Source of the DNA: Oscillospiraceae bacterium
Lineage (GTDB): Bacteria; Bacillota; Clostridia; Oscillospirales; Oscillospiraceae
DNA length: 64,000 nucleotides
Direction of reading: 5' to 3'
Assembly (NCBI GenBank): GCA_017416685.1
Contig: JAFQBN010000012.1
Coordinates: forward strand, 59,950-123,949
Shown here one piece after another: positions 14,570 through 19,746 of the stretch (position 1 is the stretch's first letter; each line of letters begins with the position of its first letter). A program made the position numbers and the translations under genes. The notes under the pieces are model-generated. The model did no database searches and was not told where the DNA came from. It saw only the letters and a list, made by a program, of their open reading frames with translations.

Positions 14570-14998
14570 TTAAAAATTCAATCGCGTGGACAGGTTGCCA
14601 TGGGTGTGCAGGCTGACCGCCTTCTCCATAAAGGGAACGGTCACATCAAAATGCTCCGCCAAACTATAAAGGTCGGTACAACCCCGGGCCACGGCGGCGT
14701 CCAGTTCCCGGGCGGGAACCAGCTGCTCGATGGCCCACTTGTCCGCTTTGTACTCGTGCTTGGCGACCAAATCGTAGGGGCTGCTCACCCGGTGGGTGGC
14801 CCCGGTAGCCACATGGCCGCCCTCATGGGCTACCACCACCCGCTCTTCCGCGCTGGTGTGGATATTGTCGAAGTCCATGAAAATGGCGTACCGGCCGTCC
14901 AATTCGATGGTTGCGGCCTGCCGGTCGTCCAAATCCCAGTGGTAAAACCTGACCCCCGCGCGGTTCAGTTTGTCATACAGGGCCAGCGTTTTATCCAT
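14570..14998 (-). CDS. ImmA/IrrE family metallo-endopeptidase (anti-repressor)
   Basis: HExxH motif (VVAHEGGH), E.KADKWA..L, LAEHFDVT..FM; directly downstream of an XRE repressor. Confidence 0.88.
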   Translation of the reverse strand: MDKTLALYDKLNRAGVRFYHWDLDDRQAATIELDGRYAIFMDFDNIHTSAEERVVVAHEGGHVATGATHRVSSPYDLVAKHEYKADKWAIEQLVPARELDAAVARGCTDLYSLAEHFDVTVPFMEKAVSLHTHGNLSTRLNF

Positions 14999-15000
14999 AG

Positions 15001-15339
15001 TCAACCTTCCTTTCCGTTCTGCAGCTCCTTGTTAAAGAAGCGCGCCATTTCCAGCAGCATCTGCTTCTTCTCCTCAGGCAGGTCGCGGGATTCATTGTAA
15101 AGCGCGTAGGTGAAATCGTCGAAGTCCAGTTGCTTTTTCGGTTCGTCCCGCATAAGAGAACTGATGTCGATGTGCAGGGCATCGCAGATCTTCACCATGG
15201 TTCCGGTCCCAATGCCGTCCACACCGCGGGTAAACATATTTCGGATGGTGGTGGCAGGCACACCGATCTGCTCGGCAAATTTGGAGATGTTTCCGTACTG
15301 CTTGGCAATTTGTTCCTTCAGATATTCCACCTGGGACAT
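15001..15339 (-). CDS. XRE-family HTH repressor (ImmR/CI-like)
   Basis: N-terminal HTH ISKFAEQIGVPATTIRNM..TMVKICDALHID; C-terminal 'DDFTYALYNESRDL.EEKKQMLLEMARF'. Confidence 0.88.
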   Translation of the reverse strand: MSQVEYLKEQIAKQYGNISKFAEQIGVPATTIRNMFTRGVDGIGTGTMVKICDALHIDISSLMRDEPKKQLDFDDFTYALYNESRDLPEEKKQMLLEMARFFNKELQNGKEG

Positions 15340-15388
15340 ATTGCTTCCTCCCATCTGTTACAGCGTTTTCCGCTGTTTCTCTGACCCC

Positions 15389-15417
15389 ATTGTAACGCAA
15401 TTGAGTTTTAATTGCAA
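15389..15417 (-). promoter_or_regulatory. Leftward sigmaA promoter for repressor/immA
   Basis: Minus strand TTGCAA-17bp-TACAAT; an operator lies in its spacer. Confidence 0.7.
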
Positions 15418-15543
15418 GCACATTTTTACTTAATTGAGTAATTTTTTTATTTTCCCTCTTGACATATTACTCAATCGAGTGTATATTGCACTTGTAGCTA
15501 CTCGATTGAGTATTTTCGCTCAGTGGTGAAACTCAATTGAATT
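15394..15543. promoter_or_regulatory. Five 14-bp palindromic operators, consensus WACTCAATTGAGTW
   Basis: AACGCAATTGAGTT 15394-407; TACTTAATTGAGTA 15427-440; TACTCAATCGAGTG 15468-481; TACTCGATTGAGTA 15499-512; AACTCAATTGAATT 15530-543. Confidence 0.85.
15459..15487 (+). promoter_or_regulatory. Rightward sigmaA promoter for the lytic-direction operon
   Basis: TTGACA-17bp-TATATT; operator 3 occupies the spacer. Confidence 0.8.
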
Positions 15544-15603
15544 GTTTGTGCCTACAGAATATCAAACCGACAGTACCATAATCCGGACAGAAAGGAGTGT
15601 GCC

Positions 15604-15639
15604 ATGAAGTTTATTGTGCAAGGAGGTGAGGACGAATGA
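15604..15639 (+). CDS. 11-aa leader ORF MKFIVQGGEDE
   Basis: AGAAAGGAG SD 6 nt upstream; its TGA overlaps the next ATG (ATGA). Confidence 0.45.
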   Translation: MKFIVQGGEDE

Positions 15640-15884
15640 CACCGGGAACTATGGGACTGCTGCCCCCTCTGCGGGACAGTCAGCAGTGTCCTCCGGCGGG
15701 GTTGTGTCCCCGCTGCTGCGGGGAGTTCTACCCCGGGGAGGCCCGTTTCGTATGGGATGGCGTGCCGGTCTGCACCGACTGTTTCCGCATGGCGGCAGGT
15801 CATTGGCTGGAGCGCTTTCCCATCGAGGCGGCACTGGCCCTGCAGGTGCAGGTGCTGCTACCGGAGAGGGGGTGGCTCACTTGA
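15636..15884 (+). CDS. Hypothetical 82-aa protein with two CxxC pairs (possible Zn ribbon)
   Basis: GGAGGTGAG SD; CPRC...CTDC; overlaps the next ORF start. Confidence 0.65.
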   Translation: MTPGTMGLLPPLRDSQQCPPAGLCPRCCGEFYPGEARFVWDGVPVCTDCFRMAAGHWLERFPIEAALALQVQVLLPERGWLT

Positions 15885-16123
15885 CCCTGAAGGAATTGGC
15901 GGTGGAATACCGTCAGGGCGCTCAGCTTTTGGCCGGGCGCATCCGGGAACTGGCCGCCCGGCGCAGCAGGACCCACGACAGGACGGAGCAGCTTGTGCTG
16001 GAGGGGCGGATGGCACCTTTGATCGAAATGCGCCGTCAGGCCCAGCAAACTGCCCGGGACTGCGAACGCTATTACAACACAGGAGGTGTCTGCCGTGGCA
16101 AAACCACGCTACCGCCGGGGTAA
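15881..16123 (+). CDS. Hypothetical 80-aa helical protein
   Basis: TTG start after GAGAGGGGG; MTLKELAVEYRQGAQLLAGRIREL... predicted helical hairpin; part of ORF-track 15614..16123. Confidence 0.65.
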   Translation: MTLKELAVEYRQGAQLLAGRIRELAARRSRTHDRTEQLVLEGRMAPLIEMRRQAQQTARDCERYYNTGGVCRGKTTLPPG

Positions 16124-16428: not shown

Positions 16429-18573
16429 ATGATTCAATTCAACAACTGGCAGATCTGGGCCGACCCGCGGCTCACGCTGCAGCAGAATGACCATCTCAGC
16501 CGGGAGCTGACCGTTTCCGGTCCCCTGCCCGAGGGCTGGGACTGGACCATGCTGGTACAGGTGGACGGACAGATGGACATCTGGCCCCTGCAAAAGAATC
16601 CGGATGGCTGTGCATCCATCCTGCTCACTGCCCAGCAGCTCGGCCCCGGCGGCTTCTACCGCATGCAGCTGCGGGGAACGAAAGGAGATGTCACCCGCCA
16701 CACCAACGTCATCACCCTGTTTGTCCCCCGCTCTCTCTGCGGGGACAAGCAGTGGCCGGTGCTGCCCACCGAGTTCTCTGAGCTGGAACGGCGGGTGAAA
16801 GGCTATGCCTCCCACCCGCCTGTGGCGAACGACCACGGCTATTGGCAGCTTTGGGACGGCGAGAAGTACACGGACAGTAGCGTGCCGGTCACCGGCGGCA
16901 TCCGGAGCGTGTCCTACAATGCCGATACCTGGCGCTGGGAGGTCCTTTACATGGACGGCCGAATTGACAGCTTCCCCGGTCCCAGCCCCATCGAGGGCGA
17001 CAAGTTCACCATCCACCGCAACAGCTTTGAAAGCTACCCGGTGGGTGAGGACACCTTTTTCAGGGCCGACCCCCGGTATGAATACTTCGACGACCACCAC
17101 GGCGACGTCAACAGCGACAGCTACGCTACCTACGGCATCGCTGAGGTGGACGGCAGCAAGGTGCTGAAGCTGCGCTGTGTGAACAGTACCACCCACAAAT
17201 TCGACACTATGGAGCCTGTGGTGGGGGCATACACCGTCGGTCTGGACTTCAAGCTGGAGACCACCGTGGCCGGTTCCCGACCCGGCATCATGGTCAACCC
17301 GTTCAACGAGTATCGGTTCGACCACCAAAGCGGCACTATCACAGCAACCGTCCGGGCCGGAGATTATGCCCGCATTACTGACACAGGCACCACCGGCAGC
17401 CAAATGGTCTACTGGATGACGAACAAGGACGGCACACGGTTTATCCCAAAGGAAAATCTGTGGTACTCCATGCAGGTGCGAGTTGAGCTGGGGCGCATGG
17501 TACTGCGCCTTTGGGAGCGCGGGGACGAGGACACAGCTTTGGAGGTCGTGTGCGAGACTGCCGCCATCGGACAGCGAGCCATGGAGTTTGCGAAATATTG
17601 GGCCGTTTACACCTACGCGCCCGGCTCCGCATCTCAGCCTGTTCCAACCGGTGAGCATACCATTTGGCTGGATGAGCTGAAGGTGTGGCGCGACCTGACC
17701 GGCTCAGCCGGCAAAGACGGTGAGGACGGCAAGGCCGGAACAGGTCTTGCCGACTGGCGGTACAACGCCGACACGTGGCGCTGGGAGCAGGTCTATACCG
17801 ACGGCAGTATCAAGACTTTCCCCGGCGACAGTCCCATAGACAGCCGGTTCACCTTCTTCAGGGACGACTTCGAGGGGTACGCCGTCGGGGAGGATAACTT
17901 CCTTGCACAGACGGACCACTGGCAGGGTGCCGCCAGCAGTGCCATACATTACGACGTGGTGTCGGACGGCGTGCAGCGCTGTTTGCGGTTCCGGGTGAAT
18001 GACAGTTCGTCCCGCGCTGTGGCTACTTTGAACTATCCCATTTCCGGCAGGGCGACTGTCCAGTTCGACTACAAGCCAACCCCGGCGGACAACAGCGGAG
18101 GACTCACCGACCTGCTGGATATTCGGGTGTTGGGCAACACTGTGCGTGCCGGTGTGAACTTCTACAACCAATGCTACATCCACACCCCTGCGGGCGCCGG
18201 ACCCATTCGCGATGCGGCGGGCAATATCTACCGCATGGACGAAAGCATTTGGTATCGGGTGAAGCTGACCGCCGAGGTGGGCCGCGTGACCATGAAGGTA
18301 TGGAAGCGGGACACCGAGACAGAGCCGGACGGTACCAACGGCGGCGTGACCGTGCTGGAACACGCCATCGTTACCGAGGAACTGCTGCAGGCCGAGCGGC
18401 AGCTGCGGTTTGAGTTTGGCCCCATGAACTACACGAGCGCAGCCGGCGAGCATGTTGCCTATCTCGACAACGTGATGGTGTGGCGTGACCTGTGGACTGA
18501 GGCCGACAGGGACGAGATCGTCAGCCGGGTGCTGGCTGCACTGCCCGCCAACAGCAAGGAGGTAAATCAATGA
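16429..18573 (+). CDS. 714-aa phage tail-fibre/baseplate-like protein with two tandem beta-rich (lectin-like) domains
   Basis: BppU-like N-terminus, HPP...GYWQLWD spacer, two repeats starting YNADTWRWE and ending VWRDL, GKDGEDGKAG collagen-like linker, C-terminal TEADRDEIVSRVLAALP. Confidence 0.7.
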   Translation: MIQFNNWQIWADPRLTLQQNDHLSRELTVSGPLPEGWDWTMLVQVDGQMDIWPLQKNPDGCASILLTAQQLGPGGFYRMQLRGTKGDVTRHTNVITLFVPRSLCGDKQWPVLPTEFSELERRVKGYASHPPVANDHGYWQLWDGEKYTDSSVPVTGGIRSVSYNADTWRWEVLYMDGRIDSFPGPSPIEGDKFTIHRNSFESYPVGEDTFFRADPRYEYFDDHHGDVNSDSYATYGIAEVDGSKVLKLRCVNSTTHKFDTMEPVVGAYTVGLDFKLETTVAGSRPGIMVNPFNEYRFDHQSGTITATVRAGDYARITDTGTTGSQMVYWMTNKDGTRFIPKENLWYSMQVRVELGRMVLRLWERGDEDTALEVVCETAAIGQRAMEFAKYWAVYTYAPGSASQPVPTGEHTIWLDELKVWRDLTGSAGKDGEDGKAGTGLADWRYNADTWRWEQVYTDGSIKTFPGDSPIDSRFTFFRDDFEGYAVGEDNFLAQTDHWQGAASSAIHYDVVSDGVQRCLRFRVNDSSSRAVATLNYPISGRATVQFDYKPTPADNSGGLTDLLDIRVLGNTVRAGVNFYNQCYIHTPAGAGPIRDAAGNIYRMDESIWYRVKLTAEVGRVTMKVWKRDTETEPDGTNGGVTVLEHAIVTEELLQAERQLRFEFGPMNYTSAAGEHVAYLDNVMVWRDLWTEADRDEIVSRVLAALPANSKEVNQ

Positions 18574-18875
18574 TCGACCTGACACCTTTGTTCAACGCTG
18601 TCATTGCCGCAGCCGCCGTGGCCATCAGCGTATTCTTTATCCCGTGGCTGCGCAGTAAAACCTCCGCCCAGCAACGCTCCGACCTGCTGCGCTGGGCGGA
18701 CATCGCCGTGGCGGCGGCACAACAGCTGTACCATCAGTGCAGTGGGCAGACCCGGCTGGACTACGCCCTGTCCCTGCTGGCCGAGCAGGGGTTTGACGTG
18801 GACCTGCGGCAGGTGCGGGATGCGGTAGAGGCCGCGGTGCTGAAACTGCACGCCGCCGGGGAGGCTGCCCAATGA
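18570..18875 (+). CDS. Phage holin (LL-H-like)
   Basis: 101 aa, one N-terminal TM, 'IAVAAAQQLY..G..RLDYA..L...G........IEAAV'-type pattern; precedes the lysin. Confidence 0.85.
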   Translation: MIDLTPLFNAVIAAAAVAISVFFIPWLRSKTSAQQRSDLLRWADIAVAAAQQLYHQCSGQTRLDYALSLLAEQGFDVDLRQVRDAVEAAVLKLHAAGEAAQ

Positions 18876-19522
18876 CCGCCGAACGAATTTTGGCCGTTGC
18901 CCGGGATGAGTTGGGCGTAACGGAGCTGCCTGCCGGCTCCAACCGCGTGAAATACAACGCCGTCTACTATGGCCGGGAGGTATCCGGCAGTTCCTACCCA
19001 TGGTGCTGCGTGTTCCTGTGGTGGGTGTTCCGGCAGGCCGGGGCGGCGGACCTGTTTTTCGGCGGCAAGCAAACCGCCTACTGCCCTGCCCTGCTGGATT
19101 TCCACAGGAAGCAGCGGGTGACAGACTACCGGCCCGGGGACATCATTTTCTTCAACTTCAACGGCCGGGGCAGTGCCGCCCACGTGGGTCTGTGCGAAAG
19201 CTGGGACGGCAAGCGCATTACCACCATTGACGGAAACACCGGCGCCGGCAACGAAGCCAACGGCGGCGCAGTCATGCGCCGTACCCGGGACAGGAAATAC
19301 ATCGTGGGGGCCTATCGCCCCGCTTACAGAAAGGAGGATACTGTGACGCAGGAACAGTTTGACGCCATGCTCACCGCCTGGCTGGTTCGACAGGCCGCAC
19401 AGCCCGCCAGCAGCTGGAGCCGCATGGATGAAGCAAAAGCCGCCGGCATCACCGACGGCACCCGTCCGGGCAGTTTCGCCACCAGAGAGGAGGTCGCCAC
19501 CATGATCATGGCCGCCCGTTAA
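18872..19522 (+). CDS. CHAP-domain endolysin with C-terminal SLH-like anchor
   Basis: YPWCCVF (Cys), AHVGL (His), TIDGNT; tail EAKAAGITDGTRPGSFATREEVATMI. Confidence 0.88.
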   Translation: MTAERILAVARDELGVTELPAGSNRVKYNAVYYGREVSGSSYPWCCVFLWWVFRQAGAADLFFGGKQTAYCPALLDFHRKQRVTDYRPGDIIFFNFNGRGSAAHVGLCESWDGKRITTIDGNTGAGNEANGGAVMRRTRDRKYIVGAYRPAYRKEDTVTQEQFDAMLTAWLVRQAAQPASSWSRMDEAKAAGITDGTRPGSFATREEVATMIMAAR

Positions 19523-19526
19523 CGGG

Positions 19527-19565
19527 CAGGCGCGGGGCGTGCGAAGGGGGCGCGCCCCGCGCCTT
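19527..19565 (+). terminator. GC-rich hairpin closing the lysis operon
   Basis: AGGCGCGGGGCGTGC...GCGCGCCCCGCGCCTT. Confidence 0.6.
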
Positions 19566-19591
19566 ACCGGGGGATATTTTTTCAAAAAGGC

Positions 19592-19620
19592 TTTACAAAT
19601 ACGCCCGGGTGCTTTATAAT
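19592..19620 (+). promoter_or_regulatory. sigmaA promoter of the tRNA
   Basis: TTTACA-17bp-TATAAT. Confidence 0.75.
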
Positions 19621-19636: not shown

Positions 19637-19712
19637 GGGCCTATAGCTCAGCTGGGAGAGCGTACGGTTCGCATCCGTAAGGTCGTCGGTTCGATCCCGA
19701 TTAGGTCCACCA
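19637..19712 (+). tRNA. tRNA-Ala(CGC)
   Basis: 76 nt, GGGCCTA/TAGGTCC acceptor with G3:U70, anticodon arm TACGG-TTCGCAT-CCGTA, T-loop GGTTCGATCC, encoded CCA. Confidence 0.95.
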
Positions 19713-19746
19713 AAAGGCAGTCGCCCGTCCGGGCGGCTGCCTTTTC
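19713..19746 (+). terminator. tRNA terminator
   Basis: AAAGGCAGTCGCCCG-tc-CGGGCGGCTGCCTTTT. Confidence 0.8.

Follow-up and report, generated by a model that had tools for sequence, protein, structure and literature searches.

The antireceptor of Streptococcus thermophilus phages (ORF18 of DT1 and MD4; Duplessis and Moineau 2001, cited in PMC5601072) is summarised there as a protein whose domains are split by collagen-like repeats and whose variable regions set host range and are swapped between phages. We have found that a 64,000-nucleotide stretch of DNA from an Oscillospiraceae bacterium (contig JAFQBN010000012.1 of assembly GCA_017416685.1, positions 59,950 to 123,949 of the forward strand; hereafter the window) carries, at 16429..18573 on its forward strand, an open reading frame (ORF) of 714 amino acids (aa) whose product appears to be a phage tail fibre with two different lectin-fold domains. 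As far as that summary goes, the S. thermophilus antireceptor is the nearest described parallel, being likewise a modular receptor-binding protein of phages of Gram-positive bacteria with collagen-like separators, although we detected no sequence relationship between it and the fibre. The two also differ in that whole lectin-fold domains vary here, each headed by a connector of about 28 aa, and in that the breakpoints map here to the connector and to an N-terminal anchor and are not shown in the GXY repeats. We consider it probable that the full explanation of the locus is a tail-fibre family with exchangeable lectin-fold modules, one member of which sits in an operon that is under selection and lacks genes for a phage particle.

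The operon has parallels of its own. PBSX of Bacillus subtilis has the order xre, xpf, ... xkdV fibre ... xhlAB, xlyA, so that the repressor gene is followed by that of a sigma-like positive factor, then by the fibre gene and the lysis genes, as is the case here, and PBSX-like contractile-tail clusters encode relatives of the fibre; this locus, however, is without any head, sheath, tube or baseplate gene. In PaLoc, in the UviA/UviB/Bcn5 locus and in the ‘type 10’ secretion loci a sigma-type regulator, a cargo without signal peptide, a holin and a peptidoglycan hydrolase are encoded together, and here too a cargo lacking a signal has the genes for a holin and a peptidoglycan hydrolase next to it. 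Bcn5 can be induced by UV, and the operon described here is equipped with an ImmA/XRE switch; the cargo here differs in being a tail fibre with a tail-attachment domain, and the regulator in consisting of 107 aa that hold region 4 only. In the gene transfer agent of Rhodobacter capsulatus, fibre or spike genes and lysis genes occupy loci apart from the structural cluster and are co-regulated with it, which provides a precedent for unlinked fibre and lysis genes, but in a different phylum, without homology, and with no structural cluster linked to the cassette studied here. The protein is a family-less variant of a well-known kind, the modular phage receptor-binding protein, and the conserved regulator-fibre-lysis operon is the more unusual element of the two.

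The fibre ORF starts with ATG, 5 nucleotides (nt) downstream of an AGGAGG ribosome-binding site and 10 nt after the stop codon of a sigma-like gene. When its first 440 residues are compared with the rest by BLASTP, an internal duplication becomes apparent (aa 163-430 against aa 444-695, 29% identity, E=2e-30), with unit 1 at aa 163-424 (~262 aa) and unit 2 at aa 445-690 (~246 aa). The N-terminal border of the units (YNADTWRWE..Y.DG.I..FPG.SPI...FT..R..FE.Y.VGED.F) is identical at 30 of 47 positions (64%) and the C-terminal border (LD...VWRDL) at 7 of 13 (54%), the WY...E.GR....W.R motif is 31% identical, and the interiors are only 19% identical. A preliminary description of this DNA, made from its letters alone, had proposed two tandem units with conserved borders and strongly diverged interiors, and in this it was right; its DNA coordinates are exact and fall on two direct repeats (80 nt at 16915/17761, 71% identity; 20 nt at 17678/18473, 90% identity); only its unit size of 265-280 aa has had to be reduced. 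The collagen-like linker it saw between the units is the spacer GSAGKDGEDGKAGTG, which consists of five GXY triplets. A regular-expression search across homologues finds spacers of 6-8 triplets, and metagenome contigs contain further length variants; the five triplets of this protein give no match to Pfam Collagen, a match that the homologue P0016 does have. The N-terminus, MIQFNNWQIWADPRLTLQQNDH, has no hydrophobic core, and inspection of it agrees with the earlier statement that there is no signal peptide. Beyond the two units the protein has an N-terminal domain of ~150 aa and a C-terminal helix, EADRDEIVSRVLAALP, neither of which appears in the preliminary description.

The structural models support the assignment of unit 1 to the concanavalin-A/legume-lectin type of beta-sandwich, a prediction that is sound at the level of the superfamily. 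An AlphaFold2 model of unit 1 built from a 41-sequence alignment has a predicted local distance difference test score (pLDDT) of 95.4 and a predicted template-modelling score of 0.91. Compared with the PDB by Foldseek, it gives 227 matches at E<1e-3, the best 50 of which are all legume (L-type, ConA-like) lectins, with probability 1.0, E ~1e-7 and template-modelling scores (TM) of 0.34-0.53; these lectins thus have the same beta-sandwich, but at 6-12% identity and with no Pfam lectin match for the fibre. This check had been proposed together with the claim of a ConA/LamG-like fold, and its outcome agrees with that claim. Among predicted viral structures (BFVD) the best matches to unit 1 include phage proteins that bear the labels ConA-like, LamG-like, tip attachment protein J or tail repeat, besides many without a name. 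A model of the whole protein, for which nine homologues were available, is of mediocre quality as a whole (pLDDT 66) but beta-rich, with a pLDDT of 70-93 in most 10-residue blocks of both cores; core 2 in this model is likewise beta-rich, at 58-88 per 10-residue block and mostly 70-88. Its 194 significant PDB matches are nearly all ConA-like domains, among them sialidase lectin domains, C-terminal domains of GH43 enzymes, laminin LG, galectin-8, legume lectins and clostridial neurotoxin Hc. At the level of sequence, the fibre falls into no family of Pfam, PHROGs, NCBIfam or PADLOC (a match of aa 158-178 to DUF6061, E=0.013, is below the cutoff), and a sequence search of the PDB with the fibre returns chance matches only (TrkA, E=0.016). 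The best PDB profile match, to the CBM40 lectin domain of NanA (E=0.087), is not significant, and one of the 41 aligned relatives matches the ConA-like family 3keto-disac_hyd weakly (4e-4).

The two parts of each unit differ in where else they occur. An exhaustive representative profile search with alignment A1, made from ten units, recovered 63 relatives; a word-indexed profile search of a set of 5.8 billion proteins with the same alignment came back empty even though its own members are in that set, so that this empty result does not mean absence. The connector, that is the first ~28 residues of each unit (YNxDTWRWE..FPG.SP), is found only in fibre-type proteins, directly after the anchor or a GXY run, and the core without connector is present in one to five copies in giant proteins of 1500-2700 aa (P0017, P0019, P0020, P0026, P0029 and others, from public genomes and metagenomes), usually just after the signal peptide. 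Among proteins other than fibres, the giants are nearest to the core in sequence (the unit profile matches them at E down to 5e-85), and the four that were scanned (P0017, P0019, P0020 and P0029) contain DUF4886, Big_2 and sialidase-like BNR_2 domains, to which SLH domains are added in two. The core is often in tandem in them, as in the fibre, but they have no connector, anchor or GXY spacer and are secreted wall-anchored enzymes. Judged by these relatives, the connector is a fibre-specific adaptor, and the core is a module common to fibres and cellular glycan-active surface enzymes, which fits a putative carbohydrate-binding role; it is, on the same grounds, an unannotated family resembling carbohydrate-binding modules and extending across cell-surface enzymes and phage fibres. 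At least four types of core are visible: A and B in the fibre of the window, C and an A-like type (A') in P0007 and P0008, and D in P0009.

It is the genomic context of the homologues that settles the class of the protein as a tail fibre. Only 16 relatives of the fibre were found in the set of 5.8 billion proteins, and the N-terminal ~150 aa are common to 15 of these. What follows this anchor is two units in some, a single unit in one and long collagen-like runs with unrelated tips in others. The sixteenth relative, P0006 (L011 2327-6025, 1232 aa), which belongs to a phage, has a different N-terminus, two lectin units and an extra C-terminal extension of ~490 aa, and its gene lies just upstream of HNH, terminase and portal genes. 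Protein P0004 is encoded by the last tail gene of a siphovirus-like module, after a 1290-aa tape measure, on a 52-kb IMG/VR viral contig, and the genes for P0008 and P0010 lie two or three small ORFs past Baseplate_J/gp48 in contractile-tail modules, followed by holin and lysin genes; the homologues thus occupy the distal position in a tail module, beside lysis genes, and in the window the lysis genes are present and tail genes are not. The anchor alone, searched with anchor alignment A3 (the pattern from full-length alignment A2 was too specific and gave no match), occurs at 35 loci in species-representative genomes and on 80 viral contigs, ahead of many different C-termini and with collagen-like runs of 12-160 aa. 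All but one of the 35 genome loci are from Oscillospiraceae or close taxa (Lawsonibacter, Flavonifractor, Pseudoflavonifractor, Intestinimonas, Dysosmobacter), the sole exception being a contig of a metagenome-assembled genome (MAG) labelled Bacteroidales, and lectin units are present at one of the 80 viral loci. With its conserved N-terminal attachment domain and mosaic C-terminal parts, the 714-aa product is by homology a member of a family of Oscillospiraceae phage tail fibres or receptor-binding proteins, in which the two-lectin fibre is a rare variant of the usual design of conserved attachment end and variable far end. That the fibre may bind a receptor we infer only from the place of its homologues as last tail gene. 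The preliminary description had called the protein a payload, a word that suits the local setting of the gene but passes over the phage tail fibre with its conserved N-terminal anchor.

The fibres of this family are mosaics. Anchors are of three types, 85-93% identical within a type and ~50-67% between types, and the types combine with pairs of lectin cassettes as a free 2x2 mosaic: alpha with A.B (the fibre of the window, P0002 and P0005) and with C.A' (P0007), beta with A.B (P0004) and with C.A' (P0008). The gamma anchor is joined to A.B in P0003 and to collagen-like runs with other tips in P0010, P0011 and P0013. The DNA records where the parts have been joined. Between the window and locus L005 identity is 48-67% in codons 1-95, and from codon 100 onwards it is 87-100%; between L005 and L007 it is 88-98% in the anchor, 78-93% up to codon 183 and 42-60% thereafter. 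Loci L003, a cassette, and L007, a contractile-tail module, stem, at similar coverage, from a single metagenome; their identity is 53-77% over the anchor and ~97% from about codon 142 to codon 190 (~150 nt), after which they diverge abruptly behind FPGPSPLEG; sliding-window and base-by-base comparison place this breakpoint exactly at the junction of connector and core. We also counted parsimony-informative sites within the A.B group for the quartet of the window, L005, L008 and L003. The anchor unites the window with L003 (57:1:0), the first half of the unit 1 core unites it with L005 (12:9:4) and the first half of unit 2 with L008 (35:0:3), and since the three topologies differ, unit 1 and unit 2 assort independently. 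The breakpoints shown by these alignments fall on a conserved motif within the anchor (~aa 95-100), on the point where connector 1 ends (~aa 190) and on the passage from unit 1 to unit 2, and the same alignments show modules to have been exchanged among fibres of functional phages and this chromosomal element. Swapping by recombination at the conserved borders had been anticipated, and the anchor and cassette combinations, the L003/L007 breakpoint and the quartet counts all bear it out. We also considered whether unit 1 and unit 2 of the gene might recombine with each other, which is unlikely (the repeats are 71% identical over 80 nt, with short exact runs): the units are too diverged in DNA to do so, and exchange is between genes. 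The gene is also a poor candidate for the target of a diversity-generating retroelement, for which we found only one BFVD label, ‘Mtd N-terminal domain’, and no reverse transcriptase nearby.

In three other species (L012, L013 and L014, representatives of their GTDB species) the fibre gene at the same site, located by tblastn, encodes 190-210 aa in which the anchor is joined to the C-terminal helix, in some cases through a few GXY triplets, and lectin units are missing, so that the pair of units behaves like an insertion placed between anchor and helix. In each of these loci the short anchor protein is followed by a separate ORF of 225-227 aa (MSFHIEVSGGKTVKLPTAGKYCDRDI...; L012 10570-11247, L013 10579-11259, L014 10630-11313), which is 52-56% identical among the three and found in no other locus, and which may encode a separate binding subunit.

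The operon to which the fibre gene belongs spans ~5 kb and comprises an ImmA/XRE switch, an operator array with promoter, orf82, orf83, a sigma-like activator, the fibre, a holin, a CHAP lysin and a terminator (Table 1). A promoter scan predicts the promoter TTGACA-17-TATATT at 15459-15487 (+), with 11 of 12 consensus matches, and among the repeats of the control region is a perfect 13-nt pair (15468-15480 / 15500-15512). We note that the operator-like array, which flanks the divergent promoters between the XRE gene and the operon, is laid out in a way that resembles a phage immunity region. The 107-aa sigma-like protein is, from its domain content, likely a late-gene activator; against PRK06930, the ‘positive control sigma-like factor’ of PBSX, it scores 29.7 bits, far below the cutoff of 136.

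Table 1. Features of the fibre gene and of the operon around it, in window coordinates (dN/dS, ratio of nonsynonymous to synonymous substitution rates; HTH, helix-turn-helix)
Feature	Position	Strand	Evidence and remarks
ImmA/IrrE-type metallopeptidase	14570..15004	-	Pfam Peptidase_M78 1.4e-6; PHROG 87 metallo-protease 1e-19; dN/dS 0.01-0.05 (four relatives)
XRE/Cro-C1-type HTH repressor	15001..15354	-	Pfam HTH_26 1.6e-6; PHROG transcriptional regulator/repressor families; dN/dS 0.06-0.08
Divergent control region	15395..15543	.	at least 5 operator-like palindromes ACTCAAT(T/C)GAGT around promoter TTGACA-17-TATATT
orf82, small Cys-rich protein (CPRCCG...CTDC)	15636..15884	+	called gene in L001; in all close cassettes; dN/dS 0.04-0.20
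orf83, small protein	15872..16123	+	called gene in L001; no family match (PADLOC and NCBIfam included); conserved; dN/dS 0.08-0.18
Sigma-70 region-4-only protein, 107 aa	16095..16418	+	Pfam Sigma70_r4_2 1.6e-12; NCBIfam sigma70-ECF superfamily 4.9e-15; dN/dS 0.09-0.20
Fibre: anchor domain, aa 1-150	16429..16878	+	common to 15 of 16 first-search homologues; dN/dS 0.11-0.18 within cassette lineages
Fibre: border/connector 1, aa 163-190, YNADTWRWEVLYMDGRIDSFPGPSPIEG	16915..16998	+	64% identical to border 2; recombination breakpoint at 3' end
Fibre: lectin-fold core 1, aa 191-424, type A	16999..17700	+	AlphaFold2 pLDDT 95.4; Foldseek legume lectins; dN/dS 0.09-0.15
Fibre: collagen-like spacer, 5 GXY triplets, aa 425-439	17701..17745	+	sequence; homologue regular-expression search; metagenome variants
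Fibre: border/connector 2, aa 445-471	17761..17841	+	repeat comparison with border 1
Fibre: lectin-fold core 2, aa 472-690, type B	17842..18498	+	homologous to core 1; dN/dS 0.12-0.23; own history
Fibre: C-terminal helix (TEADRDEIVSRVLAALP...) and stop codon	18499..18573	+	helix 691-704 in AlphaFold2 model
Holin (LLH / superfamily 6)	18570..18875	+	Pfam Phage_holin_6_1 8.6e-9; PHROG 6918 1e-22
CHAP-domain endolysin	18872..19522	+	Pfam CHAP 1e-10; PHROG endolysin 8e-32; dN/dS 0.06-0.16
Terminator-like hairpin, operon end	19555..19572	+	

Both flanks of the operon are housekeeping genes (upstream infB, rbfA, truB and ribF), and the ImmA gene lies only 16 nt from a host amidohydrolase gene. Neither an integrase nor att repeats were found at the locus, which also holds no head or tail genes and, among the parts expected of a tailocin or of PBSX, no sheath, tube or baseplate genes, so that it lacks what defines a tailocin or a defective prophage; the fibre gene does not lie within a prophage. 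PADLOC defence models detect nothing in the fibre, holin, lysin, orf82 or orf83, and match the sigma-like, XRE and ImmA regulators weakly and below threshold. A likeness of the fibre to XepA, a protein of the PBSX lysis cassette, was also considered, and PDB sequence and structure searches gave no match to it. A tRNA-Ala(CGC) gene at 19637-19712 (+) lies 115 nt past the CHAP gene, with a near-consensus promoter-like site of its own at 19592-19620 and a strong terminator hairpin at 19712-19745; tRNA genes are frequent integration sites of prophages, and this one may mark the point of entry of an ancestral phage.

The operon is not confined to the window. The same eight genes in the same order occupy the same site, between M19 peptidase/Amidohydro_2 genes and an ASRT gene, in L003/L004, L012, L013 and L014, where the flanking proteins are 81-91% (M19 peptidase and Amidohydro_2) and 95-98% (ASRT) identical; L001 is a contig that does not differ from the window over this locus, and the fibres P0005 and P0007 also lie within this cassette, on short contigs. 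Each of the eight ORFs is intact in the window, L003 and L012-L014, as are all six that could be recovered on the short contig L009, and in the window the sequence features of promoter, operators, ribosome-binding site and terminator are intact too. Every gene of the cassette has a dN/dS of 0.01-0.23 at synonymous divergences (dS) of 0.2-1.6, which are similar to those of the flanking host genes (dS 0.5-1.1). For the parts of the fibre the ratio is 0.11-0.18 (anchor), 0.09-0.15 (core 1) and 0.12-0.23 (unit 2), and for the holin it is 0.05-0.18 against cassette relatives, compared with 0.36 against phage L008. Distant versions of the cassette are found at seven loci (L016, L018, L022, L027, L028, L030 and L031), with ImmA 73-76%, sigma 52-65% and CHAP 69-72% identical, the holin 65-68% identical (L016, L018 and L022 only), and fibres of 412-876 aa with other tips; one of them adjoins an acetyltransferase-PspC-DEAD-helicase block that in L001 is just downstream of the cassette, beyond ASRT. 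The regulators and holin of the cassette were never found in the 80 viral anchor loci, and the alpha anchor, P0009 set aside, was seen only in the cassette. A shared site and low dN/dS across species argue that the operon is not a one-off remnant; it looks like a long-resident chromosomal module kept by purifying selection across species rather than a decaying one, and its fibre, to judge from the mosaic genes, swaps binding modules with circulating phages.

How might such an operon work? ImmA/XRE pairs are switches of the kind found in prophages and integrative conjugative elements: upon DNA damage or some other signal, for example a phage, the repressor is removed by the protease. Inactivation of the XRE repressor would allow the promoter at 15459 to fire, leading to transcription of the small ORFs and of the genes for the sigma-like activator, fibre, holin and lysin. 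As the GXY triplets hint at a triple helix, the fibre may trimerise and would then present three copies each of two different lectin-fold domains. Lacking an export signal, it could leave the cell only through the lesion made by holin and lysin when they open the envelope, and once released it might bind surface carbohydrate of related bacteria through its two different modules. Of the possible roles we favour, with some doubt, that the fibre serves as an alternative supplied in trans to tail particles encoded elsewhere, for example by a PBSX-like contractile element, because its anchor is under purifying selection though no baseplate is encoded locally. Support for a role in trans comes from GCA_017502285.1, a genome that contains both a mini-cassette fibre (P0011) and the fibre of a PBSX-like contractile-tail cluster (P0010), the two being 78% identical over their first 221 aa and 65% over the tip, with a small ORF downstream of each that is 98% identical. 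The tract of ~150 nt and ~97% identity that the cassette L003 has in common with the contractile-tail module L007, in one metagenome, points the same way. Yet more tentatively, the locus may exemplify an undescribed kind of domesticated module, a vertically inherited suicide-lysis operon with an ImmA/XRE switch and, as its sole structural product, a lectin-type fibre that is updated by phage recombination and acts in trans. If so, the fibre would either retarget the tail particles of another locus or, as a soluble lectin, kill, mark or shield the cells around it.

Several observations weigh against these proposals. The likeness to lectins, at a TM of 0.34-0.53, is a match at the level of the fold, and membership in a lectin family has no support from Pfam, PHROG, NCBIfam or PDB sequence matches. 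A triple helix formed by only five GXY triplets would be marginal. In seven of the nine mini-cassette genomes a pattern-limited scan, made on MAGs, found no second fibre with this anchor, and in one co-occurring pair, L003 and L007, the anchors are only ~52% identical, so that a docking site common to both becomes less likely. Furthermore, none of 40 proteins, mostly structural proteins of tail and head, from four related phage loci has a match in the 64-kb window, and no RNA run is listed that holds the fibre gene.

The particle-less setting can also be read in other ways. The fibre could be free cargo, a fibre-derived lectin protein that is released by lysis or through the holin and acts on neighbouring cells in the manner of a bacteriocin or an adhesin. 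In favour of this are the lack of tail genes in the window and the pattern-limited scan, which in most cassette genomes saw no second fibre carrying this anchor, and the gene set is that of PaLoc and UviA/UviB/Bcn5, a sigma-type regulator, signal-less cargo, holin and peptidoglycan hydrolase, an association that a review (PMC9527704) describes for large clostridial toxins and Bcn5. We nevertheless think this account unlikely: it leaves unexplained why an anchor that is the tail-attachment end should still be under purifying selection (dN/dS 0.11-0.18), and Pfam, PHROG, PADLOC and NCBIfam revealed no toxic or enzymatic domain. The regulator, moreover, is a protein of 107 aa with region 4 only, as against the full-length TcdR and UviA. 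The conservation of the anchor is likewise not explained by a decoy that masks receptors, in which altruistic lysis upon phage attack or DNA damage would flood the kin of the dying cell with a soluble receptor-binding protein and block phages that use the same lectin modules. Phages that co-occur with the cassette do have modules in common with it, exchanged in recent times, phage or damage signals can be sensed by ImmA/XRE switches, and the operon is conserved on the host chromosome; but the fibre, holin, lysin and two small ORFs correspond to no PADLOC model, and as the proposal is entirely speculative we rate it improbable.

The state of the genes bears on whether the operon is instead inert, a leftover of prophage deletion beside tRNA-Ala that was kept by chance. 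Its gene order is that of a prophage minus the replication, head and tail genes, the tRNA-Ala gene is 115 nt downstream, and there is no integrase or att repeat. But eight ORFs are intact in the window as well as in L003 and L012-L014, at dN/dS 0.01-0.23 and synonymous divergence of up to ~1, distant cassettes exist at seven further loci, and the promoter, operators, ribosome-binding site and terminator are intact, as is the tidy 10-nt spacer with AGGAGG between the sigma-like and fibre genes. The selection data largely refute this explanation, which in our estimation is very improbable. More improbable still is a cellular glycan-binding surface adhesin in which the lectin cores would be carbohydrate-binding modules of the host. 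The closest non-fibre relatives of the core do occur in the giant DUF4886/BNR_2/Big_2/SLH proteins, yet this protein has neither a signal peptide nor an SLH or other surface anchor, its connector and N-terminal anchor domain are restricted to fibre-type proteins, and its homologues are found in tail modules. We therefore retain the tail fibre with exchangeable lectin-fold modules, encoded in a selected operon without particle genes, as the probable explanation.

Modular receptor-binding proteins set the host range of phages, and this family provides an unusually clean natural example, in that whole lectin-fold domains together with their connector have been shuffled among a chromosomal operon, elements with contractile tails and siphovirus-like phages. 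Fibres in Oscillospiraceae, an abundant gut family for which, to our knowledge, there are almost no characterised phages, can be annotated with the connector and anchor motifs as landmarks. Since an operon without a particle is held at one site under purifying selection, it also suggests that bacteria can domesticate a fibre and a lysis switch alone, an arrangement that would join tailocins, gene transfer agents and holin-dependent toxin loci.

Lastly, we note three observations on cassettes outside the window. In L003 (8544-14561 (-) and 14718-15629 (+)), the closest relative from another strain or species, and likewise in L004, the lysin and ASRT genes are separated by an insertion that encodes an SLH/BNR_2 surface protein of 2005 aa and an AraC regulator; at E<1e-3 this surface protein has no lectin core. 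A single Lawsonibacter MAG contains two distant mini-cassettes (L030 and L031, on JAZNMM010000033.1 and JAZNMM010000138.1), each with ImmA, XRE, sigma and a fibre of 869 or 876 aa; either the cassette is truly duplicated there or the bin combines two strains. Finally, in run X4, from a bovine gut metagenome, a divergent version of the XRE gene and control region (window 14933-15701, 53 differences in 770 nt) has an assembler depth of 87, as against ~6 elsewhere in the cassette, and in the holin bin (window 18648-18824) the depth reaches 138; from these depths, the regulators and holin may also be present in a far more abundant relative or element.

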